Origin: a virus
Taxonomy: Duplodnaviria > Heunggongvirae > Uroviricota > Caudoviricetes
Reading direction: 5' to 3' (one strand)
Length of the DNA stretch: 42,114 bases
IMG/VR virus record: IMGVR_UViG_2561511241_000009
Coordinates: 1 to 42,114 of that record
Part shown: in pieces, positions 3,034 to 27,795 of the stretch
Position numbering within the stretch: position 1 is the stretch's first letter
How the letters are laid out: each line of letters begins with the position of its first letter
Notes under the pieces: model-generated
What the model saw: the letters and a program-made list of their open reading frames with translations, nothing else
What the model was told of the DNA's origin: nothing
Databases searched by the model: none
Program-made: the position numbers and the translations under genes

Positions 3034-3552
3034 GTGATGAAATTTAAAAAATGTCTTCTGCCTGTGGCAATGTTAGCGTCATTCACTCTGGCAGGATGCC
3101 AGTCAAATGCTGACGATCATGCTGCCGATGTTTATCAAACCGATCAACTGAATACCAAACAAGAAACTAAAACCGTTAATATTATTTCCATTCTTCCCGC
3201 AAAAGTTGCCGTAGACAACTCCCAAAATAAACGGAACGCACAAGCCTTCGGCGCGCTTATTGGCGCAGTCGCTGGCGGTGTTATCGGCCACAACGTCGGG
3301 TCTGGCAGCAATTCCGGAACGACGGCAGGTGCAGTTGGCGGCGGAGCTGTAGGCGCGGCAGCGGGTTCTATGGTGAATGATAAAACCTTAGTGGAAGGTG
3401 TTTCTTTAACCTATAAGGAAGGCACCAAAGTGTATACCTCTACCCAGGTGGGTAAAGAGTGCCAGTTTACGACAGGTTTAGCCGTTGTTATTACCACGAC
3501 GTATAACGAAACGCGTATTCAGCCAAATACCAAATGTCCTGAAAAGAGCTAA
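3034..3552 (+). CDS. yfgH: glycine-zipper lipoprotein YfgH-like
   Basis: Signal peptide with lipobox LAGC; Gly/Ala-rich glycine-zipper segment (GALIGAVAGGVIGH...AGAVGGGAVGAAAG); start may be the second Met at 3037. Confidence 0.75.
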   Translation: MMKFKKCLLPVAMLASFTLAGCQSNADDHAADVYQTDQLNTKQETKTVNIISILPAKVAVDNSQNKRNAQAFGALIGAVAGGVIGHNVGSGSNSGTTAGAVGGGAVGAAAGSMVNDKTLVEGVSLTYKEGTKVYTSTQVGKECQFTTGLAVVITTTYNETRIQPNTKCPEKS

Positions 3553-3567
3553 TAATCAGGAGGAGTC

Positions 3568-4107
3568 ATGAAGAAAGTTTTTCTTTGCGCCATCTTAGCC
3601 TCCTTAAGCTATCCGGCTATCGCCTCATCATTGCAGGATCAACTCTCTGCTGTCGCAGAAGCGGAACAGCAAGGTAAAAATGAAGAGCAAAGGCAGCATG
3701 ACGAATGGGTCGCGGAGCGCAACAGGGAAATCCAGCAAGAGAAGCAACGTCGCGCAAATGCCCAGGCCGCCGCTAACAAAAGAGCGGCAACGGCAGCGGC
3801 AAATAAGAAAGCTCGTCAGGATAAACTGGACGCCGAAGCCTCTGCGGACAAAAAACGCGATCAAAGTTATGAAGATGAGCTACGCAGCTTAGAGATTCAG
3901 AAACAAAAACTGGCGCTGGCAAAAGAAGAAGCCCGCGTTAAGCGAGAAAACGAATTTATCGATCAGGAACTGAAGCACAAAGCTGCGCAAACCGATGTGG
4001 TGCAATCTGAAGCTGACGCCAACAGAAATATGACTGAAGGCGGTCGCGATCTGATGAAAAGCGTGGGCAAAGCAGAAGAGAACAAATCGGACAGCTGGTT
4101 TAATTAA
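3568..4107 (+). CDS. yfgI: secreted coiled-coil protein YfgI-like
   Basis: AGGAGG RBS 6 nt upstream; signal peptide; charged Q/K/E/R-rich body; 179 aa. Confidence 0.75.
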   Translation: MKKVFLCAILASLSYPAIASSLQDQLSAVAEAEQQGKNEEQRQHDEWVAERNREIQQEKQRRANAQAAANKRAATAAANKKARQDKLDAEASADKKRDQSYEDELRSLEIQKQKLALAKEEARVKRENEFIDQELKHKAAQTDVVQSEADANRNMTEGGRDLMKSVGKAEENKSDSWFN

Positions 4108-4310: not shown

Positions 4311-4799
4311 CTATTTTTGCTTCTTCAATGAGTCGTATTGCTGCTCGCAGAATTCCCCTGCAATCCGATACTTTTCAGCCTCAACTGCTGTTGCGTTGTA
4401 AACTCGGTTGCTTTCTTCAAGCATGTCGGCGAGCACACCAATGACCTTGCTGGCTGGCGTGCCAGAGGGGAAAGATCCGGTATAGTGTTCGGCGAGTCGC
4501 TTGGTATTGTCAAGCTCGGCGCGCATGCTGTCAGCAACGGTATTAGCATACTCAGCATCAGCAAGCGCCGCATCGATACGGGATTGTGCTTCACGTTCAA
4601 TTTGTGTTTTCTCCTGCTCACGCTGTGACCTGAACTTATCATCAGCCTGTTTCTGATCTTCCTTCGCCTGCGCATACCCGGCGTCGTACTGACGACTGCC
4701 GTGTGCATTCCAGGCTACAACTCCTGATATGACCAGAACAGCGAGCATCGCCATGATAACCAACTGTTTCCAGTATGCTTTTGCGAATGCCCAGATCAT
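4311..4799 (-). CDS. i-spanin Rz-like
   Basis: N-terminal TM helix then coiled-coil periplasmic region; start overlaps endolysin stop (ATGA); contains embedded lipoprotein ORF. Confidence 0.75.
4325..4573 (-). CDS. o-spanin Rz1-like lipoprotein embedded in Rz (+1 frame)
   Basis: Internal Met starting [17 protein letters not shown] (lipobox LTAC), Pro-rich; fully nested inside Rz. Confidence 0.7.
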   Translation of the reverse strand: MRRLLMLSMLIPLLTACAPSLTIPSDSPNTIPDLSPLARQPARSLVCSPTCLKKATEFTTQQQLRLKSIGLQGNSASSNTTH

Positions 4800-5425
4800 A
4801 CCACCAGCACCTTACTGGCAGTGATGTACCGCGCGCGCCGGTCGTCGATGCCGTTCCGGCCACCATTGATAATCAGAGTTACACGTGCAATATCGCCGGT
4901 ATACTTCATGCATCCTTTGCTGGCGAAGAACCACGCCGCGCTACGAGCCGCGTATTCGTCCTGCGCCAGCAGTTCAGGATTCTCCAGCAGGTCAACTTTC
5001 AGACCGTTTCCGCAGTCACGATAGTTATTCAAACCGGTAATCTGGATAAGCCCGCGCCCACGGTAATTCCAGCCATCGCCTGGAGCATTGTTACCCATGC
5101 GTTTGCTGTACACCAGATTTGCGATCGCGCGCTGGCGATCGAGTGGCAATGGTGGCTCACCAGCACGGCGGCCCAGTGCGTTAGCCTGTCCCTGGGTGAG
5201 ACGCCCAGCCCGAACGAAGTTAGCCAGTCCGGTGACGCTGTAGTTGAAATTTTCCTGCAACCGATTGAAGCCCCCAGACTCATGCCCGACCTGAGCAATA
5301 AACATTGCCTGATCTTCGGGTTTGCTGATACCAAACTCTTTCATCGCAGAAGTTATATGCGAGAACCAGCGTGCGGCCAGCGCCTCGCTAATACCAGCAG
5401 CTCGCTGGAATTGTTTAATCTCCAT
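4796..5425 (-). CDS. endolysin, glycoside hydrolase family 19 (chitinase-like)
   Basis: Motifs [12 protein letters not shown] and [16 protein letters not shown] typical of GH19 lysozymes; sits between holin-like genes and Rz. Confidence 0.85.
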
Positions 5426-5723
5426 GTTTAGACCTCGTTATTTTGAAAATCTGAACGACGTTACCGCGCGTTTTAACAACCGCAGCAAGCATGACAGCGT
5501 TGATAATGACCTCAGATAAATCCACAGCCATTGGCGTGCGTAGCCATATTGCATAGACAGCACGAACTGGAATACTGGCCGCAGCAACAATCAGAAAATA
5601 AGCAAGCCAGCCTCCCCATCTTCGGTGTTGAGAACCGTTACGCCGGAATGTGACAACACGAATTGCTATGCCAGTACAAATAACTGCATTGGTGATAAGC
5701 AAAAAAAGCTCATGCGTTACCAT
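5415..5723 (-). CDS. lysis-cassette membrane protein (holin/antiholin-like, 3 predicted TM)
   Basis: 102 aa, three hydrophobic helices, basic C-terminus; overlaps both neighbours. Confidence 0.5.
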
Positions 5724-6114
5724 CGTCTTTTCTCCCCGGAATTAACTCTCGTGGATTATCGGAGCGGTGATAAAGCCATATACCAATTCGCACGGCGACA
5801 ATTGACGACACAAATGCACCAGCAGAGAAGACGATCCCTTTCTCGAAAGAGTCCTGCGTGATGGTAGGGATCAGGCTGGCTACACCGATAAGGATGGATG
5901 CTGTAGGTTTGTAAAAGAGAAGGCCGCAGAGGAAACTGAGCATAGACAGGAGAACCCGGCGATGAATGGGATACTCGATGGCTGAGGTAACAAAAATTAC
6001 CGCCCCAGCCAAAGCTCCCAAAGCCACCTCTGGAGGAACCCCTGCTATCACCGCAGCAAGAGAACCCGCACTAAGCCACTGATTTAAAGACTCACTGGTT
6101 AGCTGAACTGACAT
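5710..6114 (-). CDS. putative holin (4 predicted TM)
   Basis: Hydrophobic helices and charged C-tail; first gene of cassette; ATG at 6114 with GGTGG RBS (track ORF extends to GTG at 6123). Confidence 0.6.
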   Translation of the reverse strand: MSVQLTSESLNQWLSAGSLAAVIAGVPPEVALGALAGAVIFVTSAIEYPIHRRVLLSMLSFLCGLLFYKPTASILIGVASLIPTITQDSFEKGIVFSAGAFVSSIVAVRIGIWLYHRSDNPRELIPGRKDDGNA

Positions 6115-6359
6115 AAAAACCACCGTTTAATGTGCATAACGAACCCCTTAGTTGGTGATCACATTATACACAATAAACCATATGTGGTTTAAAAACATTA
6201 GGCAGATCTTAACGATATTACCATATATGTAGTTCTGTTAAGGTGAACTACAATCATAACTAAGTAATTAATTGATAGTTCACAATATTTTTGAATGCAC
6301 AGGAAGCGTATGTCATTGATTATTAGTGACATGAAAATTAGCCATAATAAAGCTATACT

Positions 6360-8387
6360 TTATGCTGTCGCATTCCACTCTCCTGTATTCATCACCCACG
6401 CTGATACCACCCTTGAATATACCAATGTGGCTGTGGTCATTTTGATCTGAGATGTATTTGCTCCTGTGACATTTACTGGAACCCCTGCAATAGATAGCGA
6501 TGATATATTTGAACCCCTGAGAATAAATCCAATCTTCTGACCATCATATGGCGTCCCTGTAAATGATATGTTTTCTCCTGATATAACATTACGTCTATAC
6601 CAAGAGAATCCCATATTAATATCAACAGTATTATCTGATAACTGAAGAACACCATTTCTGTTAACTTTTGCCGACGAAAGAACACCAAGATCTGCTGATG
6701 TAATTCCCTGGTCTGATTTCCATGTGTTGATATTAACTACAATGTTGGTCACTGTGGCATCAGAACCTCCATCAATTTTAAAGAATCCACCTGCTCTTGA
6801 TCCATAGACAGGCTCATCAATCAAAGCATTTAGGGTGAGATTGCTTGCACTATAGGCGTTTGCTGGCAGACCAGCAGTTGTTGATGAGTGAGTACAACGG
6901 TGAAATAAAGCACCTACAGAACTCGACATTCTTACGTCTGACGAGCTATTGTTTTCAAAGTACATACCGTAGACTTTTGTACCTTGCGCTTGGTCAAGGA
7001 ACCCATATTTACTGCAATTTTGACTAAATCCACCTACAAATACTACGGCTTCAGTCGGGAATGTATTCACATAGTCCCACGTCGTCTCACCATTAAGACC
7101 ATGCCTAACAATTATTCCGTATTGCGGCATATCAATTTCTGGAGTGCCTGAATAACCATTAAAACCAGTAACTGTTATAGCATTTGCGCCGTTTCTTAAA
7201 AGAAGTCTAATTGATCCAGTGCCACCACCGATAACTTCACAGCCATCTACTTTTAGCCCGTAACATAGAGTGCCAATTTCAATTCCAACGTTGTTGGCGG
7301 CAGTTCCCATATTGACCCACATCATGTCAAGATGTCCATGGTTTCTGAACTTTATCCCTACAAATCCTCTACACCCTGTCTTCCCGCTAATGTCAATTCT
7401 CACGTTGTGTAACTTAACATTCCTTACTCCATTCCCTCCTGAAATTGTCGGATCGCAGGTCATTACTGTCATGTTATTGTTTGCAGGATATAATGTTGCT
7501 CCAGGATCCCACCAAATTTCCGTGTTTGGATATATCGCCCATGCTGTGCTGGTTGTATAAGTTCCTGATGAAACGTATATCTGACCAGCTGATGAAAGGA
7601 TTGACTGTATCTGAGTAGTATTCATAGATGGGTAAATAACCTTCGACGGCTTAACGCTACCTTTATAAGGGTAATCTTCCCAAATGCTGTTCCCGCCCCA
7701 CGAACTACCAACATGCTTATCGAACCCAGGCTGCGCGATCTGTAATAATACGTCAGATGCTGAACCGGATGGTGGCAGTACAGGATAAGGGTTACCTGCA
7801 CTGTCAAACGCAACTATTTTATTTGCCCTAGTCGCTGCGTCAGGAAGTTGAGGGATTTGCTCAGGCACTCGTAGGGTGCGGCTGTAATTATTGCTTGCCA
7901 GCGAGTCGACATAATTCTTTGTAGCCGCGTCCTGTTGGCGTATGGGATCGCGAAGATTTCTAATATAGTTGTTCAAAGCATCATAATAGTTTGCCACGAA
8001 TGATGGCTTGCGAAGCGCTAGGCTAAACCAACTTCTAACCTGCTGTATCAGCATCGTCAGTTTATCGAATGCGTCTTCATGCACCTCAGCGAAGAACTTA
8101 CCCTGGTTGCGCAGATCGGTATCCTGCGTAACCGGTAGCTCTCTTGATATAGAAATCTGATAACCGTTAACCAACGCCTTCGACAGAATTACATTGCCGC
8201 CGTTATACCCTCCCGCACCAGTGACTATGTAATCAGTATCAAGAATCAGCTCTGTGATGTTCTCGTTCAGGTCAACAACCTGCACTACTAAATCAGATTT
8301 CTGGAAAATCCTGAAGGTATAAGGGAATGTCGTTGTAACACCGTTACCGGTGTATTCGTTGTGGTCAACTTCGGTTGAGACCGTCAT
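6360..8387 (-). CDS. tailspike / tail fibre receptor-binding protein with T7 gp17-like N-terminal anchor domain
   Basis: N-terminus YTGNGVTTTFPYTF...VVQVVD...ISISRELPVTQDTDLRN parallels T7 tail-fibre N-domain pattern; long Gly/Asn/Thr-rich body; visibly AT-richer than flanks. Confidence 0.7.
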   Translation of the reverse strand: MTVSTEVDHNEYTGNGVTTTFPYTFRIFQKSDLVVQVVDLNENITELILDTDYIVTGAGGYNGGNVILSKALVNGYQISISRELPVTQDTDLRNQGKFFAEVHEDAFDKLTMLIQQVRSWFSLALRKPSFVANYYDALNNYIRNLRDPIRQQDAATKNYVDSLASNNYSRTLRVPEQIPQLPDAATRANKIVAFDSAGNPYPVLPPSGSASDVLLQIAQPGFDKHVGSSWGGNSIWEDYPYKGSVKPSKVIYPSMNTTQIQSILSSAGQIYVSSGTYTTSTAWAIYPNTEIWWDPGATLYPANNNMTVMTCDPTISGGNGVRNVKLHNVRIDISGKTGCRGFVGIKFRNHGHLDMMWVNMGTAANNVGIEIGTLCYGLKVDGCEVIGGGTGSIRLLLRNGANAITVTGFNGYSGTPEIDMPQYGIIVRHGLNGETTWDYVNTFPTEAVVFVGGFSQNCSKYGFLDQAQGTKVYGMYFENNSSSDVRMSSSVGALFHRCTHSSTTAGLPANAYSASNLTLNALIDEPVYGSRAGGFFKIDGGSDATVTNIVVNINTWKSDQGITSADLGVLSSAKVNRNGVLQLSDNTVDINMGFSWYRRNVISGENISFTGTPYDGQKIGFILRGSNISSLSIAGVPVNVTGANTSQIKMTTATLVYSRVVSAWVMNTGEWNATA

Positions 8388-8999: not shown

Positions 9000-9155
9000 A
9001 TGCGTTAAGCACAGCCATATCCGAATTATGGTGGGCTGGGCAGGGGTCCGAAAGGACGCCGGTACCACTTAGGCCGGTACGCCAACCTTGTCCAGTTCAC
9101 CACCAGTAATTGGCGTTGCGGTGGTGATTAAAATCACTAAGTGGAGATAACCACC

Positions 9156-9866
9156 ATGGCTAATGCTCAAACTGCCATCTTCAAATTTGAATCTGTTAAC
9201 CCTATCCGTTCCATCATTATCGATGGCCAACCATGGTTTGTAGCCCAAGACGTTTGTAGTGCGCTGCGTATCCAAAACGTCACCCAATCACTTGAAAAAC
9301 TGGATGATGATGAAAGGTCTATGTTCAACATAGGGCATGAACATCGTGCAATTTTTGATAGCCGAGTAAAAGAGCTCAACATCATCTCCGAGTCAGGCCT
9401 CTACACACTGATCCTCCGCTGCCGCGATGCGGTGACACCAGGCACTATCCCCTACCGCTTTCGTAAATGGGTTACAGGTGAGGTTCTTCCTCAGATCCGC
9501 CGCACCGGAAGTTACATTAAAGACTCGCTCCCGCAGGAAGAACGCATAAAGATGGTTGCCGACCAGGTAGCCAACGCCACGGCGTCAGCAGTAATACAGG
9601 CAATGAAGATAGAGAACAAAACCTACAGTGCCCCACTGAAGCCCGGCTACCGCAGCCTGATTCACTCGCCGTCTGGTGTTCTCGGCCTGACGGAGAACTC
9701 ACTGCTGATGAATCTGCTGAACCAGTTGCAGGACGACGGGCACGACGTATCTGGCGCGGCGGCGGAGCTGACCACCATGTTCTGCTACATCGTCGGTGTG
9801 AGCAAATGCCTGCGTGATATCCAGACGCACGCGGAGTACATCAACGACAAGGCAGGGTTCTTCTGA
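9156..9866 (+). CDS. BRO-N domain antirepressor (KilA-C/Ant-type C-terminus)
   Basis: N-terminus IFKFESVNPIRSIIIDGQPWFVAQDVCSAL fits BRO-N pattern; C-terminus paralogous to 8583-8840 product; GGAG RBS before ATG 9156 (track ORF starts at GTG 9141). Confidence 0.7.
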   Translation: MANAQTAIFKFESVNPIRSIIIDGQPWFVAQDVCSALRIQNVTQSLEKLDDDERSMFNIGHEHRAIFDSRVKELNIISESGLYTLILRCRDAVTPGTIPYRFRKWVTGEVLPQIRRTGSYIKDSLPQEERIKMVADQVANATASAVIQAMKIENKTYSAPLKPGYRSLIHSPSGVLGLTENSLLMNLLNQLQDDGHDVSGAAAELTTMFCYIVGVSKCLRDIQTHAEYINDKAGFF

Positions 9867-9966: not shown

Positions 9967-10134
9967 ATGACAGCGTTGAAAAATCGTACTCAGCACAATG
10001 AACAAGCCAAGCAATGCTGGGATGTCATTGGAAAAGTTATGCTTGGCCGCGCAAGCAAAGAGCGCGACAAGGATATGGTTTACCAGACAGGAACATCTTT
10101 CAGCGACTTCAAGGCGGCATTTCGCTCCAAATAG
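9967..10134 (+). CDS. hypothetical small protein (55 aa)
   Basis: AAGGAGG RBS with 6-nt spacer to ATG; open 55-codon frame; absent from ORF track (below 60 aa). Confidence 0.5.
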   Translation: MTALKNRTQHNEQAKQCWDVIGKVMLGRASKERDKDMVYQTGTSFSDFKAAFRSK

Positions 10135-10154
10135 AAGCACATCAGGAGTTTTCC

Positions 10155-10595
10155 TTGAAGTTTAACATTAGAATATCTAATAGTTTTCTACATGGGGAAA
10201 GCAACACCCCTTTCGCTGTAGACGGACCTTTCCTTACTGATGATGAAATAAAAATCATACAAAGTTTTTTAGAGGATGTTGCCAATGGAAGGGCGCTTGT
10301 TGGAAAAAACAAGCCCTCGTGGGTTGATGATAACCATGATAAAATTCCCGGCTCAGACAATTATGAGCAAGAGAATTATTGGCATTATCATTGTGGGCCA
10401 ACATGGTATCCAAACACATTTAAGAATTATACCATTAACTTAAATTTCAACCCTGGCGGAATGCATTCTAATGAATGCATTCATTATGCAAAAAATGATA
10501 ATGAAATTGTCATTGTTGGATTTTCAAGAGAACACATACCTTTCCTTTCATCAGATGGAAATAACAATCCGCTTTTTAATGATGAAGAAGAATAA
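10155..10595 (+). CDS. hypothetical protein, AT-rich cargo gene (TTG start proposed, 146 aa)
   Basis: AGGAG then 6 nt then TTG at 10155; no in-frame ATG before residue ~130; strong AT-rich codon bias (many N/K/I/F); acidic C-tail; no recognisable family. Confidence 0.45.
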   Translation: MKFNIRISNSFLHGESNTPFAVDGPFLTDDEIKIIQSFLEDVANGRALVGKNKPSWVDDNHDKIPGSDNYEQENYWHYHCGPTWYPNTFKNYTINLNFNPGGMHSNECIHYAKNDNEIVIVGFSREHIPFLSSDGNNNPLFNDEEE

Positions 10596-10689
10596 GCCCG
10601 CGCTGCGGGATTTTTTGTGGACGAAACAAAAGTCAGTGCTAACACTCATTGACGCCACATTGAGGTGGCTTATAGATGGAAATTTCACA

Positions 10690-10851
10690 ATGAAAAAAGC
10701 ATTTGCTGCACTGTTCGTTTTGTTGTCTCTGGTAGCTTCAACTCAGGCCTTTGCCGGTCGTTGTCAGCACGACAGCGACACTGCTGCTGACGGCTCCCGC
10801 TGCGGTGGGCGTTCTGCGGATTCCCGCCCGGGTGGCGGTGGCATTCGTTAA
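10690..10851 (+). CDS. hypothetical secreted small protein (53 aa, signal peptide, 2 Cys)
   Basis: MKKAFAALFVLLSLVASTQAFA signal peptide with AxA cleavage site; Gly/Arg/Asp-rich mature part; weak RBS. Confidence 0.4.
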   Translation: MKKAFAALFVLLSLVASTQAFAGRCQHDSDTAADGSRCGGRSADSRPGGGGIR

Positions 10852-10857
10852 AAACAA

Positions 10858-10873
10858 GGCCGCGAAAGCGGCC
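10858..10873 (-). terminator. terminator hairpin for the leftward structural operon
   Basis: GGCCGC-gaaa-GCGGCC; on minus strand followed by TTGTTTTTAA. Confidence 0.6.
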
Positions 10874-10889
10874 TGTGACATGTCACGAC

Positions 10890-11303
10890 TTATAAAGATG
10901 ACTGATATTTTACAACTCTGTTCATGGCATCTTTTTTCACCGAGCTGATATCAGTTCTTATTTTGGCTTCGTCATTACTGCTTATCATGCTATTAATTTT
11001 TTGCACTGACATGCCGTTTCTTTCAGCCATTGCACATACAGCAGCATCGTATGAAGAACTCGCTGCGATGGATATCACCTTGTTACACTCAAACACAGCA
11101 CCTTCAGCAATATCAGATGCCGATGAGGCTGGCTTGGTATAAGTCTTGACGTAGTGATCAATACAACTATCCTTCGCCGTCTTGGCAAGAGAAAAATCCA
11201 TTTTAACTTTGTCGCAATATGCCTTATCAACACCGTCATAAACATCATAGGATGTCGAGCAAGCGGATATCAAAAATACCGATAACAGCAATAATTCCTT
11301 CAT
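10890..11303 (-). CDS. phage lipoprotein (cargo; superinfection-exclusion candidate)
   Basis: Signal peptide plus lipobox (LISAC); AT-rich; last gene of the leftward structural operon. Confidence 0.6.
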   Translation of the reverse strand: MKELLLLSVFLISACSTSYDVYDGVDKAYCDKVKMDFSLAKTAKDSCIDHYVKTYTKPASSASDIAEGAVFECNKVISIAASSSYDAAVCAMAERNGMSVQKINSMISSNDEAKIRTDISSVKKDAMNRVVKYQSSL

Positions 11304-11312
11304 TGTTGTTCC

Positions 11313-13787
11313 TTATTGCGGAGTGACATCCTGAGGTCGCCACCAGTATGTCTGGTTAAACTCTTTCTTCGAACGTTGCTCCATTTTACGCAAATAGCCT
11401 GGTGAAAAATACTCCTGCATCTGATTAAAGATCATGTGATCGAGAGCCGCCTTCAAGTACCAGAGATTCGCACCAGGCATCAAACCTTTCCCAAGCTTAA
11501 CCAGATCACCACCAGTCTGCTCATTCTTCCCTTCCACAGCATTTAACGGTATGCCCTGAGCAATCTTCACTACGTCATCAACCAGACCAGCTACCGGGCC
11601 AAGCATCGACGCTAGTGCGCCGCTCCCGTACCTGGTGTGGTCAGAGAAAAGAAAATCACCATACAACCCTGCCCCACCACCTTTTAAAAATGCATTTATC
11701 CAGAATTTAACCATGTTGTCACCGGTCATTTCTTTTGGATTTCTCCCATTAATAAGATCAGTAATCTGCATGGAAAGAGCACCAAGCATGGTTGTGCTTG
11801 CTAAAAACGTTGCTATATATGCCGCACGCCCACCAGCAGACGGCATCCCCATAGCTCTATGCCAGTGACGCATAACTACCGAGATAGGGAACGATTTAAA
11901 CAGGAAAACACTTCTCGTTAATTCACCTTTCCATGTTCCACGCTGAAGACCAGACCCTACGAACATCCGTTCACGTGCGCCCGGTGTAATAACAGCCATA
12001 TCAACTTCTTCAGTTACGGCACCGAGCAGTTTACGCATTGCCTCAAATTTCACACGTTCAGGCTCACCAAGATGTTTAACTGCTGAATCAGGGATACGCA
12101 TAATGCTTTCCGGTGTCAGCATCGTATTATTACCGTTCCCCCAGTCCTCCTGTTGCGCCAGCTTCCATACGCTCCAGTCTGTGTCAGTAATCCCTTTGCT
12201 TTTCAGGATACGAAAATCATAGTCATCGAGGCTACGAAGGTCTGGTGTCCGTGACACTACTTCTCCCAGGCTTCCCATCATGGTTACGCCATAGGCGCGC
12301 TTGTGCGCATCTGACCATGCTGTAAGCCCACTGGCACGCATTACCGCCGTTGCCGCCCAACGAGACACTGACGGCCCCATATTATCCATCGCCCAGCGGT
12401 TAACGCTGCCAAGTAGAGATTCCATCGCCAGACCAGCGCGGCGCGCCCGCGCAAGTTCTGTACGGTTCGTTGGGTCCATAGCTTCAAGCTGGTTGCGGAA
12501 TAACTGGTTCATTGGAAGGTTGGTAACCTTCGCAGACAGATACATGGTTCCAAGATCAGAGAACGATGACAGCAACGCGGATCCGAGTCTGCTGGCAACC
12601 AGCCAGTTGCGGATATTGTCAGACCATCGCGCGATGTGCGGATTCGCTACAGGCTGTGTCTTTCCGGAAATAAAGTTGTACAGGTTCTCTGTTTTGTTCG
12701 CCAGCCGCTCGACTTTACCGGTTTTACTCGGGTTAGCTGTTGCCGTTTCTGCCTTAACCTGATCAAGAAGGGAGCGGAAAACATGATCGGGGTTTGGACC
12801 ATATGTTTCCACCAGTGCAATATCTTTACTGATACCTTCCAGGTGACCGACCATGATTTCCCATAGAGAGCGATCGCCATAAAGTTGCTGATATTGCAGA
12901 TAGGAATCTGCATCTTTGAAATGTATCTGTCGTGATGCATTACCACGGTTAGCACGTGCGCCGGAAATTCGCATTCCGGTATCAGTAAGCTTATTCAGCC
13001 CACCAGTAGCGATCGTGTTATAAGCCTCTCCAAGAAATGCAGACAACTCGGCATCGTTCATCAGTTGTCCATCGGCTCGGATATAATATTTGCGATCCAG
13101 CTTACCTATAACATCGCTAACCCACTTATCCTTTGATACCGCCCCAACCTTTTCCATAGAATGATGTTGAGGGATCCCCCAGTTTTCGAGATAGCCAATG
13201 TCCCCACCAGCATCATTAAACCGGCGGCGCAGTAGCTCTGTCACTTCTCTCCACGCCTTAGCACCTTTTCTTGCTTTAGCATTGCCAGTATTTTGCCCCC
13301 GCATTTCATATACCAGGTCACGTACGCCCGCTTCATCTTCAAACAGACCAAAAAAGCGAGGATCAACTGCTTCGAATGCCTCCTGCAATTGACTCAATGC
13401 ATAATCACGGGTGGCTTTTGTTCTGGATTCAACAGAGAGGAAATTCGATTTACCGTCTGCATTAAAAGCAATAGTACGGTTAAGAGCGCCAAGTTTCCCA
13501 TCAGCCCCTTGATAGCTATTGATAAATTTATCCAATCTCTGACGTGCGGCTATAGTGAGGGCCACACGACGTTTCTTTAATGCCGCTTCTCGCTGTAATT
13601 CTTCAGATGCCAATTGTGCTGCACGATATAGCCGCTCTGATTCGGAAAGTTGTCTCCACGACATCGGGTCATCACGAGCAATGGAGCGCATATTTCGATA
13701 AATGCGGTCTTCAATGTTCTGTATTTCTCGCGCCGTTAACGTGCGCTGCGCCGCCTGCTGGACCGCTTGTATACATTCCTGTCTCAT
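11313..13787 (-). CDS. large internal virion (core/ejection) protein, 824 aa
   Basis: One of three consecutive large structural-module genes between tail tubular genes and tailspike, as in T7-like/epsilon15-like podoviruses. Confidence 0.5.
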   Translation of the reverse strand: MRQECIQAVQQAAQRTLTAREIQNIEDRIYRNMRSIARDDPMSWRQLSESERLYRAAQLASEELQREAALKKRRVALTIAARQRLDKFINSYQGADGKLGALNRTIAFNADGKSNFLSVESRTKATRDYALSQLQEAFEAVDPRFFGLFEDEAGVRDLVYEMRGQNTGNAKARKGAKAWREVTELLRRRFNDAGGDIGYLENWGIPQHHSMEKVGAVSKDKWVSDVIGKLDRKYYIRADGQLMNDAELSAFLGEAYNTIATGGLNKLTDTGMRISGARANRGNASRQIHFKDADSYLQYQQLYGDRSLWEIMVGHLEGISKDIALVETYGPNPDHVFRSLLDQVKAETATANPSKTGKVERLANKTENLYNFISGKTQPVANPHIARWSDNIRNWLVASRLGSALLSSFSDLGTMYLSAKVTNLPMNQLFRNQLEAMDPTNRTELARARRAGLAMESLLGSVNRWAMDNMGPSVSRWAATAVMRASGLTAWSDAHKRAYGVTMMGSLGEVVSRTPDLRSLDDYDFRILKSKGITDTDWSVWKLAQQEDWGNGNNTMLTPESIMRIPDSAVKHLGEPERVKFEAMRKLLGAVTEEVDMAVITPGARERMFVGSGLQRGTWKGELTRSVFLFKSFPISVVMRHWHRAMGMPSAGGRAAYIATFLASTTMLGALSMQITDLINGRNPKEMTGDNMVKFWINAFLKGGGAGLYGDFLFSDHTRYGSGALASMLGPVAGLVDDVVKIAQGIPLNAVEGKNEQTGGDLVKLGKGLMPGANLWYLKAALDHMIFNQMQEYFSPGYLRKMEQRSKKEFNQTYWWRPQDVTPQ

Positions 13788-13792
13788 TTAAT

Positions 13793-15595
13793 TTAACCTC
13801 TCAAGAAACACGCCACAGCGACATCAAACAGGCTGGAATCCTGTATTGCCTGCTCACTTTCCCTGTTCGCTTCATCCAGTACTTCACGCGCGCTGCGCGA
13901 TTGTGGATTACCATCATCATCCAGCACGGTGATTATCATGTCCGGAGATTCAAGCAGCGAGTCTTCAGCTATACGCAGATCAATATCTCCTGCCGGATCT
14001 GCCATCATTTTTTGTTCTGTCTGTTGCAATATCTTACCGGGCTCAAAAGGAGCTACTTCGTCTGGCGTCCTGACCTCTGCTGTTTTATAGAATGAAACAG
14101 CCTGAGCATTAAGTTCACTTTCTGCCTGCTGTCGTCGTGCCAGTTCTGCTCGAGCTTCAAAAAACTGACCGCCAGGCTCATGCGGTGCCAACGCGTTACG
14201 GGAAAATTCCAGGCGCTCTTGTGCCTGCCGGATTCGTTGGTCAATATCGCGAAGTCTGACCTGTTTATCTGATCGAGCACGAGACAAAGCTTTACCGCTA
14301 CCGGTTGGCTCTTCTGCAAGAATTTGTGCGCGCTGTTCAGTGAGATTTTCAATAATTCGTTGGCTATTAGCGATTTCAGACTGGTAAACCTGTCTATCGC
14401 CACGCGGCAAAAGCTGCGCGGCCTGTTCTTCAAGCAACCGATTTTCTATAGCGCGCGCCGTTACTCCATCATCTACAGATGACAGAGCCTCATTAACTGC
14501 CTGAGACAGCAGACTCTTGCGCCCAAGAATTTCACTGAAAGATGCAGACTCAACAATGCTGGCAACGTCTACAGGTCTCCCCTCGCTAACATCAGACATA
14601 GCTTTTCTCAGAGCCTGAATGTGAGAATTGCGCGAAAGCACGTTGATCGGCACGCCTGGCGCAATATCAATTTCAGCATGATGAGCGGCATTCGCCGCCA
14701 GTGCAGCATCAACATCAACTGGTGAAAAATTTGGTGCGCTTGTAGACTCGCCGCGAGAGTTAATAAATCTGCCGACACCACCAAACGCCACCCCAAGAAC
14801 AGCATCAATAGCAATTGCCTGTCGATCCAACACATCATACTGGTTAGCCATTTCGCTATAGCCACCATCACGAAGCGTTTTTGCAGTAAGCCCACGCTGT
14901 GCCATACCGAACGCAATATTTGTACCTGCGGCATAGGCAATATCTGGCGTTGCACGTACTGCTGTTGCTGCGGCGCGTCGCACTGAACTTTCACCCGTCC
15001 GCGCAAGCTGAGCCGCCACACCTTCCGCCAGCGCACCGCCAGCACGTAACCCGAGGCTCATTGGGATCAGTGTTCCGGCACCAGCAGTAATACCCTGCAC
15101 TAATCCTGCTTCCTGCGCCGTCCTGAAATCAACACCCTGTGCTGTCAGCCGTTCAAACTCAGAAAAACCCTGTAGCGAAGTTACCGCCGCTGCACCTCCG
15201 ACCGGACCACCGAGCGTTGTACCGACAACAGCCTGCCCGCCCATATCGAACAACCCATAAAGAACCTGCCCGGCGGTTCCGGTTGTCGCGGCATCAGGCG
15301 TCAGCCGCTTAACCTGCTGCTCTGCTAGTTTTCTCTGCTCGGCAATGTATGAAACTGAAGTGTCATTGAGCGAGGTGTTTTCGTTAACAAACTGAGCAAT
15401 CGGGGATACGATTTTATCCATCCCTGCCCATAGCAACTGGTCTGGCTTTGCCACCAGCCCGGAGTACAAACCAGACAATGCCGCTCCTACAGCATTGTCG
15501 AAAAAACCAACATCGCTGTTAAAGCCAGCTGGATTTGATGCTGCTTCGTCAAGCTGCTGATTCTGGTTTACTGGATTAAGGCCAAAGTAACTCAT
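13793..15595 (-). CDS. internal virion (core/ejection) protein, 600 aa
   Basis: Ala/Gly-rich, coiled-coil segments; start overlaps upstream gene stop. Confidence 0.5.
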   Translation of the reverse strand: MSYFGLNPVNQNQQLDEAASNPAGFNSDVGFFDNAVGAALSGLYSGLVAKPDQLLWAGMDKIVSPIAQFVNENTSLNDTSVSYIAEQRKLAEQQVKRLTPDAATTGTAGQVLYGLFDMGGQAVVGTTLGGPVGGAAAVTSLQGFSEFERLTAQGVDFRTAQEAGLVQGITAGAGTLIPMSLGLRAGGALAEGVAAQLARTGESSVRRAAATAVRATPDIAYAAGTNIAFGMAQRGLTAKTLRDGGYSEMANQYDVLDRQAIAIDAVLGVAFGGVGRFINSRGESTSAPNFSPVDVDAALAANAAHHAEIDIAPGVPINVLSRNSHIQALRKAMSDVSEGRPVDVASIVESASFSEILGRKSLLSQAVNEALSSVDDGVTARAIENRLLEEQAAQLLPRGDRQVYQSEIANSQRIIENLTEQRAQILAEEPTGSGKALSRARSDKQVRLRDIDQRIRQAQERLEFSRNALAPHEPGGQFFEARAELARRQQAESELNAQAVSFYKTAEVRTPDEVAPFEPGKILQQTEQKMMADPAGDIDLRIAEDSLLESPDMIITVLDDDGNPQSRSAREVLDEANRESEQAIQDSSLFDVAVACFLRG

Positions 15596-18105
15596 TGCGG
15601 AATATCTCCGGAGAATCTCTGACGCTTCTGTGTCAGATTAAGAACAACGGGAGAACCATCATCTTTCAGTAGATAACCAGTACCAAGTTTCACCAGGTAC
15701 TGACTATCGCCGTAACTTTGCAAACCATACTGACCAGGCGGTGTTTTTATCCCGGAGCCGACAACTTGTTCATTCCAAGCCTGATTAACCTGCTTATCGA
15801 ATTGCTCTGCAGACATTCCCCACGGCAAAAGGACATTCCCCATTCCGTTATAGTCATGCACGCCACCTGTAGCTACGTTAACAGCCTGTTTCCAGACATC
15901 ATTGTCAATTTCGCCTGATACCACGCCTTTTTTCGCCATCACACCAGCGTAATAATCCTTTGCGATCTCGTATGCCATTGATGCTCCCTGAGCGTCACCA
16001 GCAAATGCATCCTTCACCATGTCAGAAAACTCAAAGCGAAGATCAGCATCTTTAGGCATCGGAATACCTTTCGCGTCATCAGTACCTTTACGAGCCGCCG
16101 CGCCAGCAAGAATTGTCTGCGCAGCGGTTTCAGGAGACACGGAAACATCCGGATTAAACCAGTTTTTTTCTGCCAAAATACCACCTGGCTTATCCATCAG
16201 TATCCCGGCAACGGCAGCAGATGGAGCGTTGGCACTGATCTGCTGTAGTGCTGACATATACACCTGCCCACCACCAGTGCTCTGCCTGATGGTATCGAGA
16301 TATGCTGCCTGTTGGGAAACGGGCGCATCACGAAAGAAAACACCGATCTGATTGGCCTCGTCTTTGGAAAAGAACGTCAGTGGAGTGCCATATGACTTAG
16401 CAAGGTCACTGACCTGAGCAGCTCGCAAGGCAACGCTCTGTCCAAAGTTATCCTTATTGCTCATGTCGATAGGCTTTGCCTGTCCGGCGGCAAGAGAGAA
16501 CTGTACAGGATCAGCCTGTCGCTGCTTTATCACCTGACTTGCAGCCGACACAACGTTGTCATAAAGAGCGGCTCGTGCCGCATAACCCTCCCCTGTCTCA
16601 CCAGTATCCGGGCGTAATTGCTCAACATATGCTGTAATGCTGCTTGTCGGCATGTTGCGGAAAGAGCCTATATACTGTCCGGCGATTTGCGTATTTCTGA
16701 ACTCGGTATATCGCAGGTTTCCTTCTCTGACTCCATAAGCTGCAATAAAATCAGCCTCACCAGGTGGGTTAGGAAATTCAACGCCACGCATATACGCAGC
16801 TGTCGCATCGCGAACCTGGCTGTCAATCATCGTTTTATATTCAGCCTGCTGCTGCCGACGCAGTTGATCCGCCTGTCGCATAAAACTTGCCTGCGCCTCA
16901 GGAGATGCCGCATCGAATGCTGCATTACCGGTATAGCGTTTGGTGTTGGTTGGAATTGTTGATAAACCAAGTGCTGCACTGACACCAGCAGTTAACTGCT
17001 GATCACTGTATGGCTGGCTACCGTTCTCATGATGGATAATGGCTGCACAAAGCGCCTTCAGGGTATCAGGATTAGATGCATCGAGAGGCTCATCAGCAGA
17101 AACGCCAAGTTGTTCGCACACTGCTTTGATATACGACATAGTGTCATTTTTATCAGTAGGCGGTGCCCAGCGATTAATTATCTCGCTGACGGTATCAATA
17201 CCCTGCCTCTGATACGACATCAGGTTCCGCCCTAATGCACGAATCCCGTGTTCAGGTGTTTCGAATTTCGCAAATCGACCATCATCACCGGTCTGGCCTA
17301 CCCACGGATTAGTTTTGCTGTATTCGAGATTTCCTGGGTTATTGTTGCGTATGCCACGGGCACGCTCGGAAGAGTCACTATCTGCTACAGCACGGCGAGC
17401 TCCAGCTGCAGTATCACTTAACTCGCCATTACTTTGGATGAATGCGGTCGCATTGTTTGCCGACCACTGGGACAATGCGGCATCAGCAACCTTCTCTTTA
17501 AACTCGATTTTCTTGGCCTGTATTTGCTCGTCGCTCCAGCCATGCGCAATGCCGTAATCCTCAATTTGCTGGAAAGTTTGCTTATTAGCCAATATGTATG
17601 CGGCGTTGTCGCCATACAATGCTGCGGCATTTTTACCATTGTTCAGCAGCGTAGCCTGAAACTGGCCTTCTTCGTAGGCATTTATTTGCCCTATCTCGTG
17701 CCGCCCGGCCTGCGTAGTGAACTGAATGCGCTGCTGCTGCGCCTGCTGCATGAAAGCATTACGAGCCTGTTCATCCGGCAGCGACATAGCCAGTTGTTCG
17801 ACCTGAGCATCAAACTGCTGCGTATACTCATGGCCTTTTCCAATAGCATTTTTCCCTTTCAGGTTAAGCAATCCTGTTTCAGGATTATTCAGCAGATCAC
17901 TGCTTATCTGACTGAGGTTAAGAGATGCCTCCTGAGCCAGAGCGATATTGGCACGCTGTTTTGCCTGACCAAAAACATCAATAGCCTCTGCCCCTGCCCG
18001 AACAAAAGCATCACCAATACCTGGCTGAGAAAACGTCTGCAAGCCTGCTGACTGAACTCCACGGCTCTCAACCTGACGTCCGGATACTGTTGGTACGACT
18101 GGCAT
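15592..18105 (-). CDS. internal virion protein with possible cell-wall-degrading segment
   Basis: Central RGIRNNNPGNLEY...FAKFETPEHGIRALGRNL segment resembles virion muralytic domains; GGAGG RBS before Met at 18105 (track ORF extends to 18180). Confidence 0.45.
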   Translation of the reverse strand: MPVVPTVSGRQVESRGVQSAGLQTFSQPGIGDAFVRAGAEAIDVFGQAKQRANIALAQEASLNLSQISSDLLNNPETGLLNLKGKNAIGKGHEYTQQFDAQVEQLAMSLPDEQARNAFMQQAQQQRIQFTTQAGRHEIGQINAYEEGQFQATLLNNGKNAAALYGDNAAYILANKQTFQQIEDYGIAHGWSDEQIQAKKIEFKEKVADAALSQWSANNATAFIQSNGELSDTAAGARRAVADSDSSERARGIRNNNPGNLEYSKTNPWVGQTGDDGRFAKFETPEHGIRALGRNLMSYQRQGIDTVSEIINRWAPPTDKNDTMSYIKAVCEQLGVSADEPLDASNPDTLKALCAAIIHHENGSQPYSDQQLTAGVSAALGLSTIPTNTKRYTGNAAFDAASPEAQASFMRQADQLRRQQQAEYKTMIDSQVRDATAAYMRGVEFPNPPGEADFIAAYGVREGNLRYTEFRNTQIAGQYIGSFRNMPTSSITAYVEQLRPDTGETGEGYAARAALYDNVVSAASQVIKQRQADPVQFSLAAGQAKPIDMSNKDNFGQSVALRAAQVSDLAKSYGTPLTFFSKDEANQIGVFFRDAPVSQQAAYLDTIRQSTGGGQVYMSALQQISANAPSAAVAGILMDKPGGILAEKNWFNPDVSVSPETAAQTILAGAAARKGTDDAKGIPMPKDADLRFEFSDMVKDAFAGDAQGASMAYEIAKDYYAGVMAKKGVVSGEIDNDVWKQAVNVATGGVHDYNGMGNVLLPWGMSAEQFDKQVNQAWNEQVVGSGIKTPPGQYGLQSYGDSQYLVKLGTGYLLKDDGSPVVLNLTQKRQRFSGDIPQ

Positions 18106-18650
18106 TATAATCCTCCGGGTAATCTGGTTCCTGCTGCTGCCCCGATTGGCGCAGGAGTGCTTTGAGTAAACGGACTCCACGTCCCACCAAACATCTGGTA
18201 CGCACCGTATGCCTTCAGAGGCGCGGTGAGCAATGTTGTTGCTGCTCCCACATTCCCCTGTTTACGGGCTGAACTGGCTTCTGCTTTATAGTTGGCAGCC
18301 TGAACCTGATAACCGTAAGCCTCGCGTTGCGCGTTATTCACCGTCGTCAGCGAATCAAGAGCGCCAAACTGGGCAGTGTCGCCAAATATATCCAGCGCGT
18401 TACCTGTAGATAAATCAGCGCCGGTAGCCCCCATTGTCGCCGCCTGTGTACCAAGCCGCTGTCGGGTCTCTCTGCGCCGTTGCTCAGCTTCAGCGTTACC
18501 TCTGTTTATTGCATCATTTGCCTGAGCTGTGGCTATATCTGCGTTCGCTTCTGCAACCTTCGAGACATACTTTCCCTGTTGGTACTGGGTGTATGCCTGA
18601 ATGCCACTCATGGCGAGCATTGCGCCACCAGCAATAACCGGATCGCACAT
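18105..18650 (-). CDS. virion structural protein (hypothetical, 181 aa)
   Basis: Position in structural operon; Ala/Gln-rich. Confidence 0.4.
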   Translation of the reverse strand: MCDPVIAGGAMLAMSGIQAYTQYQQGKYVSKVAEANADIATAQANDAINRGNAEAEQRRRETRQRLGTQAATMGATGADLSTGNALDIFGDTAQFGALDSLTTVNNAQREAYGYQVQAANYKAEASSARKQGNVGAATTLLTAPLKAYGAYQMFGGTWSPFTQSTPAPIGAAAGTRLPGGL

Positions 18651-27718: not shown

Positions 27719-27795
27719 GTGGCATTAGCTCAGTCGGACAGAGCAACCGCCTTCTAAGCGGTTGGTCGCAGGTTCGAATCCTGCATGCCACGCCA
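27719..27795 (+). tRNA. tRNA-Arg (anticodon UCU)
   Basis: Manual fold: acceptor GTGGCAT/ATGCCAC, D-stem GCTC/GAGC, anticodon stem ACCGC/GCGGT with loop CTTCTAA, T-arm GCAGG-TTCGAAT-CCTGC, discriminator G, encoded CCA. Confidence 0.9.

Follow-up and report, generated by a model that had tools for sequence, protein, structure and literature searches.

The stretch of DNA analysed here comprises 42,114 nt (IMG/VR record IMGVR_UViG_2561511241_000009, positions 1 to 42,114; referred to as the window) and represents E. coli chromosome with a prophage of the epsilon15/phiV10 type (genus Uetakevirus). Directly behind the last gene of the ejection-protein operon of this prophage lies a gene for a small lipoprotein of 137 amino acids (aa). 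We tentatively propose, with slightly less than even confidence, that this lipoprotein is an accessory, non-virion protein of the outer membrane that acts in superinfection exclusion at the level of the cell envelope. This proposal is based on a turnover of gene cassettes at the locus that resembles that of conflict genes, on the company of defense genes in which relatives of the lipoprotein are found, and on the positional precedent of the sieA gene of phage P22. The features of the locus are as follows.

10890 to 11303, minus strand: lipoprotein gene, an open reading frame (ORF) of 137 aa including the signal peptide; stop codon at 10890-10892; PHROG 8691.
11262 to 11303, minus strand: predicted signal peptide, residues 1-14 (MKELLLLSVFLISA), called by a PROSITE PS51257-type rule; lipobox L-I-S-A followed by Cys15.
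11259 to 11261, minus strand: codon of Cys15, the lipobox cysteine.
10893 to 11258, minus strand: mature domain, residues 16-137, with a tether of about 8 residues and then a modelled all-alpha bundle containing C30, C47, C73 and C90.
11304 to 11315, minus strand: junction with the upstream gene, consisting of its TAA stop codon (11313-11315), an overlapping AAGGAA Shine-Dalgarno sequence and a 9-nt spacer; upstream boundary of the cassette.
10847 to 10874, minus strand: intrinsic terminator with a 7-bp GC-rich stem, a 4-nt loop and a T-run; downstream boundary of the cassette.
11313 to 13787, minus strand: gene of the gp17-like protein (824 aa), the last ejection/core-protein gene; phrog_684, virion structural protein.

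The ORF at 10890-11303 is a real gene under strong purifying selection. This is evident from a dN/dS ratio of 0.049 at a dS of 0.51, determined against the Citrobacter/Enterobacter allele, from its conservation at 98.5-100% in 21 of 5,426 complete E. coli genomes, where it is annotated as a hypothetical protein, and from cysteines that are invariant across the homologues. The E. coli carriers originated from humans, poultry, pigs, a calf, dogs and wastewater. An earlier reading of the window, made from its letters and ORFs without database searches (the sequence-only reading), had described an AT-rich gene for a 137-aa lipoprotein that follows the last core-protein gene and is followed by a hairpin terminator. 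This description was borne out in every part. The GC content of the gene is 39.4% compared to 49.3% in the prophage. It starts 9 nt past the gp17-like gene, with the Shine-Dalgarno sequence AAGGAA overlapping the upstream TAA. A terminator scan located the stem at 10874-10857 (AGGCCGC-TTTC-GCGGCCT, then TGTTTTT), 16 nt beyond the stop codon of the lipoprotein gene, which explains why the sequence-only reading let the feature begin at 10858. On its other side the hairpin abuts the stop codon of a convergent 53-aa ORF. The DNA flanking the lipoprotein gene is 96-99% identical to Escherichia phages HEMP4, phiv142-3 and phiV10.

The N-terminus of the protein (MKELLLLSVFLISAC, then STSYD...) carries a lysine at position 2, an uncharged hydrophobic stretch and the sequence L-I-S-A-C with Cys15. 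It thus satisfies the PS51257-type rule, which was applied as an N-terminal positive charge, a hydrophobic stretch and [LVI][ASTVI][GAS]-C within the first 35 residues. As this loose rule also matches several random ORFs in the window, the motif alone is weak evidence. It is the conservation of cysteines that decides the call: no lipoprotein homologue, even at about 25% identity, lacks the lipobox cysteine or any of C30, C47, C73 and C90. According to the Lol sorting rule of E. coli and other Enterobacterales, an Asp at position +2 acts as inner-membrane retention signal. Since residue +2 is Ser in the window protein, and Ser, Thr or Gly but never Asp across the homologues, sorting to the outer membrane by Lol is predicted.

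An AlphaFold2 model of the lipoprotein is all-alpha with a mean pLDDT of 86.5, and the signal peptide alone is disordered. The modelled helices comprise residues 24-55, 62-72, 74-96, 100-106, 109-115 and 119-136. C30 and C47 on the one long helix and C73 and C90 on the other are each separated by 17 residues. These equal spacings suggest two disulfide staples, C30-C90 and C47-C73, which would point to an oxidizing compartment and thus to the periplasm. A shorter secreted relative retains only C47 and C73 of the four cysteines.

The only PHROG, Pfam or NCBIfam family matched by the lipoprotein was phrog_8691 (function unknown), which covers it over the full length (E 1.6e-91). In Pfam and NCBIfam nothing exceeded the thresholds, and weak matches to Linker_histone, Trans_coact and CC_3452 below the cut-offs were dismissed. 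No model of PADLOC-DB v2 matched at E up to 0.1. In the PDB neither a sequence relative nor a fold match among the solved structures was found. The structure-based homology search that the sequence-only reading had recommended returned no fold match to a known exclusion protein, nor did sequence and profile searches link the lipoprotein to any such protein. The family is small and restricted to Enterobacterales: searching with the single sequence recovered 17 clusters and searching with a profile 36; 6 matches came from 1.8 billion representative proteins and one partial locus from the species-representative genomes scanned. A tblastn search of 50,697 deposited phage genomes with the lipoprotein and with its relative P0022 yielded no hit. 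Hence, the family is known from prophages and metagenomes, and not from the deposited phage genomes searched. We found no literature on the family or on its genomic slot in Uetakeviruses, including within the genome paper of vB_EcoP_ZX5. Family and slot are therefore uncharacterized; the fold family is new, whereas its kind, an accessory envelope protein of prophages, is already known.

The variability of the locus was assessed in 80 IMG/VR prophages with gp17-like proteins of 92-100% identity. Each of the 80 has an ORF whose start lies 8-10 nt beyond the gp17-like stop codon. The most frequent occupant of this slot was a 57-aa protein with two transmembrane (TM) segments (36 loci), followed by a 46-48-aa 2-TM protein of the phiV10 p21/SPN1S_0020 type (about 24 loci), the lipoprotein of the window (11 loci) and a 41-aa 1-TM peptide (7 loci). 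A different lipoprotein of 126 aa and a 102-aa secreted protein, the short relative mentioned above, each occupied one locus. Phage phiv142-3 carries yet another occupant, a multi-TM protein. Thus, at least six dissimilar types of small envelope proteins share the slot, with a single gene at a time in the 80 prophages. All occupants fell into PHROGs of the category 'unknown' or remained unmatched, and none had a Pfam match.

The boundaries of the exchange are sharp. In megablast comparisons related phages matched the window at 10600-10888 and from 11310 onward, but not across the lipoprotein gene. Phages with other cassettes share the flank 10600-10888, hairpin included, at 96-99% identity, and on the upstream side the sequence is identical up to the gp17-like stop codon at loci with six different cassettes. 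The slot is never empty, and the exchange, precise between the Shine-Dalgarno/stop junction and the terminator, substitutes one cassette for another instead of inserting one. The 3'-end of the gp17-like gene is present in about 318 complete E. coli genomes, 21 of which hold the lipoprotein cassette. Such a turnover of cassettes is typical of conflict genes rather than of core functions.

Relatives with about 25-55% identity to the window protein were found in different genomic contexts, and in each of these the gene has a higher AT content than the DNA around it. Its position in E. coli, Enterobacter, Citrobacter and Cedecea is always directly behind the gp17-like gene of a prophage of the Uetakevirus type. 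The Cedecea lipoprotein is 55% identical, while the ejection proteins of 874, 565 and 848 aa encoded beside it show 22-27% identity (24% for the gp17-like partner). P0022, the most distant member with about 26% identity, is encoded in a metagenomic phage at the end of an operon composed of genes for a T7-gp14-family protein, an SLT protein, a 573-aa and an 855-aa protein. The position behind the gp17-like gene is thus kept in the Cedecea and metagenomic phages with proteins that are 24-26% identical. In the P0022 phage a gene for a 191-aa secreted protein (phrog_11983, function unknown; 7366-7941 in locus L099 and 1133-1708 in L100) lies between the gp17-like and the lipoprotein genes, and the slot can therefore hold two envelope genes. 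The 102-aa secreted proteins found in the same slot in Klebsiella and Enterobacter have a central Cys-Cys hairpin in common with the lipoprotein (hhalign probability 91.5%, E 8.5e-7).

Outside phages, P0020 and P0023 of Providencia and Morganella (Morganellaceae) are encoded by stand-alone genes in integrative islands of the integrase-AlpA-DUF3987-YfjJ type. Their neighbors include SIR2-HerA, HD and GmrSD genes, GajB (E 5e-121), a DruE-like helicase, type I and type III restriction-modification genes, and PDC-S11. In the Morganella and Providencia islands (L103-L108, approximately 11.6-16.0 kb) two ThiF-family (E1-like) proteins and a 708-aa UvrA-like ABC ATPase are encoded beside the relative. 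This trio is conserved, occurs together with SIR2-HerA and type III restriction-modification in the same island, and may itself represent an uncharacterized defense module. A further type of relative, P0021, is encoded by one of the two ORFs on 2.4-kb Col3M plasmids of Providencia and also occurs on 4.0-kb Proteus plasmids. On these mini-plasmids (NZ_CP135992.1, 2,428 bp, and NZ_CP066834.1, 4,044 bp; loci L109 and L110) a 142-aa family member is the main cargo, and the other ORF of the 2.4-kb plasmid codes for 146 aa without Pfam match. The existence of stand-alone relatives on islands and plasmids argues for a protein that acts autonomously.

Superinfection exclusion had already been suggested by the sequence-only reading. 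The variable slot, the sieA-like location and the stand-alone relatives make it the best-supported hypothesis, although we would put it a little short of an even chance. The protein would form a helical bundle, stapled by two disulfides and displayed to the periplasm from the outer membrane on a tether of about 8 residues. Its gene would be transcribed at least with the late ejection-protein operon, as the final cistron, and the protein would act alone as an envelope barrier to an incoming phage. We favor a block after adsorption, at the periplasmic step of genome delivery. This might be achieved by binding or blocking the trans-envelope conduit or the peptidoglycan-cutting domain of the ejected core proteins, in a manner similar to P22 SieA or T4 Spackle, or, less likely, by clamping an outer-membrane protein from the periplasmic side as in the case of T5 Llp. 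We infer the step blocked in this scheme, as well as the localization, the disulfides and the anti-phage role.

The sequence-only reading had envisaged a block of either the phage's own receptor or its entry route, and for the receptor we found no indication. Uetakeviruses adsorb to the O-antigen by their tailspikes. A coupling of the lipoprotein to the type of tailspike or O-antigen was rejected: the same lipoprotein (95% identity) occurs together with a tailspike gene coding for 1070 aa, with one coding for 826 aa, or without a called tailspike gene, and it accompanies Wzy or acyltransferase genes as well. The gene also travels with ejection proteins that are only 24% identical. As it is independent of the tailspike type, masking of the receptor is less likely than interference with a later step.

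Several observations weaken the case for an exclusion function. In addition to the missing homology and fold match to known exclusion proteins, a classical prophage exclusion function is expected to be expressed in the lysogen, and this expectation was not supported. A consensus scan of the minus strand at 11303-12200, covering the 9-nt gap and 900 bp upstream, found no sigma-70-like site with at least 9/12 matches, although such scans cannot exclude a promoter. A promoter-like site at 11273-11244 was disregarded because it falls within the lipoprotein ORF. The late operon is therefore the sole supported transcript for the gene. An expression restricted to the late phase would be compatible with exclusion in the course of lytic growth or with protection of the progeny rather than with classical lysogen immunity; prophage exclusion systems have been reported to protect progeny from being taken up and destroyed. 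Furthermore, the lipoprotein in Cedecea is far better conserved than the neighboring ejection proteins, which argues against a tight lock-and-key relation with the gp17-like protein, although P22 SieA is likewise insensitive to divergence of the ejection proteins. Finally, insertion sequence (IS) elements also flank the island copies, and the link to defense islands is guilt by association.

The run of ejection-protein genes upstream includes those for a T7-gp14-family protein and for proteins of 862 and 600 aa, and ends with that for the 824-aa gp17-like protein. This last protein is a homologue of phiV10 p20, which the annotators of phiV10 likened to gp17 of BcepC6B. The 862-aa protein (15592-18180, minus strand) matches PHROGs named 'tail injection transglycosylase' and 'endolysin' and has no Pfam match at E up to 0.1, whereas its counterparts in the Cedecea prophage and in the metagenomic phage carry Pfam SLT. 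The enzymatic domain of the 862-aa protein may be divergent. Among the 80 related prophages the gp17-like protein differs by at most 4%, except for a bi-allelic hydrophobic patch at residues 660-710 (approximately), in which 18-21 of 100 residues differ between the alleles. The patch allele of the window was present at all 11 lipoprotein loci and at 4 loci with other cassettes, the other allele at the remaining 65 loci. This association probably reflects linkage and, less probably, a functional coupling. Tight co-evolution of the lipoprotein with the gp17-like protein was rejected, considering the 4 loci with other cassettes that share the patch allele and the Cedecea partner with 24% identity.

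Among known systems the closest parallel in genome organization is found in P22. The sieA gene of this phage lies in the interval from gene 16, the last ejection-protein gene, to gene 9, which codes for the tailspike, and its product is a membrane protein that prevents DNA injection by disturbing the gp20/gp16 conduit and is up-regulated on induction. In the window the lipoprotein gene is located directly behind the ejection-protein gene at 11313-13787, the tailspike gene is found at 6360-8387, and a Bro-N antirepressor gene lies between them. Both phages thus are temperate, O-antigen-specific podophages in which an accessory envelope gene separates the last ejection-protein gene from the antirepressor/tailspike region. 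The proteins themselves differ. SieA is a multi-pass inner-membrane protein with the cytoplasmic motif FxRYPxEAxxFNK, whereas the lipoprotein combines a cleavable signal peptide with a soluble helical domain, lacks this motif, and shares no sequence similarity with SieA.

Another parallel is Spackle (gp61.3) of T4, a small periplasmic alpha-helical bundle with one disulfide that is produced by the resident phage and excludes incoming phages by inhibiting the peptidoglycan hydrolase of their virions, the tail lysozyme. Both proteins would have a compact helical periplasmic domain with disulfides, predicted in our case, and the 862-aa protein with its transglycosylase and endolysin matches would be a possible hydrolase target. 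In contrast, Spackle consists of 75 aa, is soluble and belongs to a lytic myovirus, while the lipoprotein is predicted to be lipid-anchored with a mature form of 123 aa and four cysteines. Spackle (PDB 6X6O/6XC0) was not among the fold or sequence matches of the lipoprotein.

The statement of the sequence-only reading that small phage lipoproteins in this kind of position often mediate exclusion has precedents in Llp, Cor and Ltp, but these are only a handful and stem from other types of phages. Llp of T5 is described as a small lipoprotein of the inner leaflet of the outer membrane that blocks FhuA. The lipoprotein of the window resembles Llp and Cor in being small, phage-encoded and predicted to reside in the outer membrane. 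The Cor proteins of phi80, N15 and HK022 are likewise small phage lipoproteins conferring exclusion. Unlike the window gene, which travels with unrelated tailspikes, Llp and Cor clamp the receptor FhuA in systems of FhuA-dependent siphoviruses, and neither a sequence nor a fold match to them was obtained. Ltp of the Streptococcus thermophilus phage TP-J34 is described as a surface-exposed prophage lipoprotein of a Gram-positive host involved in superinfection exclusion (PMC3952083). The exclusion membrane protein of TP-J34 was reported to block DNA injection. Ltp and the window protein are both prophage lipoproteins, but Ltp belongs to a Gram-positive system and the window protein has no match to the Pfam family of Ltp. 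Ltp targets the tape measure protein and contains tandem helix-turn-helix-like repeats.

That the gene travels alone as cargo on mobile elements of three kinds, the 2.4-kb plasmids among them, could also be explained by an orphan periplasmic immunity or inhibitor protein directed against a peptidoglycan hydrolase of the type VI secretion system (T6SS) or against a bacteriocin. Such a protein would protect the host of the mobile element and would have no role in phage entry. The periplasmic signature and the small helical domain fit this explanation: many T6SS and bacteriocin immunity proteins are small and periplasmic or lipidated, some are all-helical with disulfides, and orphan genes of this kind spread on mobile elements. 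We regard it as improbable. A low probability is also assigned to a moron serving host fitness or lysogenic conversion by a change of the envelope, for instance in serum/complement resistance, adhesion or stress tolerance, without any effect on phages. The lambda protein Bor is a lipoprotein of this kind that confers serum/complement resistance. An AT content above that of the surrounding DNA wherever the gene occurs, as is typical of accessory genes acquired by horizontal transfer, would be consistent with a moron, as would the own terminator, the varied sources of the E. coli hosts, and the carriage on islands and plasmids. However, no Pfam or NCBIfam match to Bor/Iss, TraT or other known families of virulence lipoproteins was found, no promoter of its own was detected, the alternative occupants of the slot are tiny membrane peptides unlikely to be virulence factors, and the island neighbors are defense rather than virulence genes. 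In the definition of Juhala and Hendrix, a moron is a unit of promoter, gene and terminator. In line with this, the lipoprotein gene stands as one accessory gene of deviating base composition between sharp boundaries, ends at a terminator of its own, and varies in presence among otherwise near-identical phages. In contrast to a moron, no promoter consensus was found upstream of it by the scan, it is joined to the late operon by the Shine-Dalgarno/stop junction, and its slot is never empty.

This translational juxtaposition to the last late gene, together with the lack of a detected promoter of its own and an operon position conserved across very divergent phages, would be compatible with an accessory function confined to the late lytic cycle. 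The protein might then help to assemble or export the ejection proteins, adjust lysis, or alter the outer membrane as the cell dies. We consider this very improbable, since a complete lysis cassette exists elsewhere in the window, relatives occur outside phages on islands and plasmids, and unrelated occupants of the slot in phages with near-identical virion genes indicate that none of them is an essential partner. A component of the virion or of its assembly was rejected on similar grounds, as the slot is swapped among phages with near-identical virion genes and relatives exist alone on plasmids and islands. To our knowledge, the virion proteomics of epsilon15 lists no such small protein. A role as outer-membrane spanin (o-spanin) was rejected as well. 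An embedded Rz1-like lipoprotein with the lipobox LLTAC is already present in the lysis cassette, within the DUF2514 gene at 4311-4799. Moreover, the 137-aa protein is helical and is encoded about 6 kb away from this inner-membrane spanin (i-spanin) gene. In the spanin catalogue, epsilon15 and phiV10 are assigned to the family of Bcep176 spanins.

Further features of the window were noted in the surroundings of the cassette. The convergent ORF of 53 aa (10690-10851, plus strand), which ends at the hairpin of the lipoprotein gene, has a cleavable signal peptide (MKKAFAALFVLLSLVASTQAFA, then G...), a GC content of 57%, and matches phrog_14503 'membrane associated protein'. Its mature part of 31 aa is rich in Gly, Arg and Asp and contains two cysteines. 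An ORF of up to 193 aa at 10014-10595 (plus strand, 38% GC) matches phrog_5954 (unknown function) over residues 49-189 and neither Pfam nor PADLOC. With the Bro-N antirepressor gene on one side and the small secreted peptide on the other, it represents another accessory gene of the interval between the gp17-like and tailspike genes. The Bro-N/Ant-like antirepressor gene itself (9141-9866, plus strand) lies between the ejection operon and the tailspike gene (6360-8387, minus strand). This arrangement recalls the region from gene 16 to gene 9 of P22. The lysis cassette (4311-6123, minus strand) is located beside yfgI and encodes two holins, a GH19 endolysin and the DUF2514 i-spanin; the embedded o-spanin starts near 4573 and is Pro-rich. 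The host genes yfgH and yfgI are found at approximately 3034-4107, an arrangement also annotated in NZ_CP033635. A tRNA-Arg gene within the prophage (anticodon TCT; 27719-27795, plus strand), between the portal and terminase regions, is annotated in NZ_CP033635 as well.

The exclusion function proposed for the lipoprotein can be extended to the locus as a whole, although we consider this broader view unlikely. The last cistron of the Uetakevirus ejection operon would then be a dedicated 'exclusion slot', through which at least six unrelated small envelope proteins would be exchanged, each of which would block podophage genome delivery at a different layer. These layers would be the outer membrane for a lipoprotein, the periplasm for the periplasmic protein, and the inner membrane for the 1-TM and 2-TM peptides. 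The lipoprotein family would represent a new portable single-gene barrier to phages, which would also have been captured by defense islands and 2.4-kb plasmids of Morganellaceae.

If the function turns out to be a different one, there is still a well-conserved and uncharacterized family of lipoproteins on mobile elements. The slot provides a natural panel of interchangeable small envelope proteins for dissecting the trans-envelope DNA conduit of short-tailed phages. Prophages of the epsilon15/phiV10 type are present in about 6% of the complete E. coli genomes, and exclusion by the lipoprotein, if confirmed, would be the first envelope-level superinfection-exclusion function assigned in this group of phages. 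It would add a new counterpart anchored in the outer membrane to the inner-membrane protein SieA and the soluble Spackle. Single-gene barriers of this kind on prophages, islands and tiny plasmids, which escape defense-finder tools such as PADLOC, could then narrow the host range of therapeutic and typing phages.

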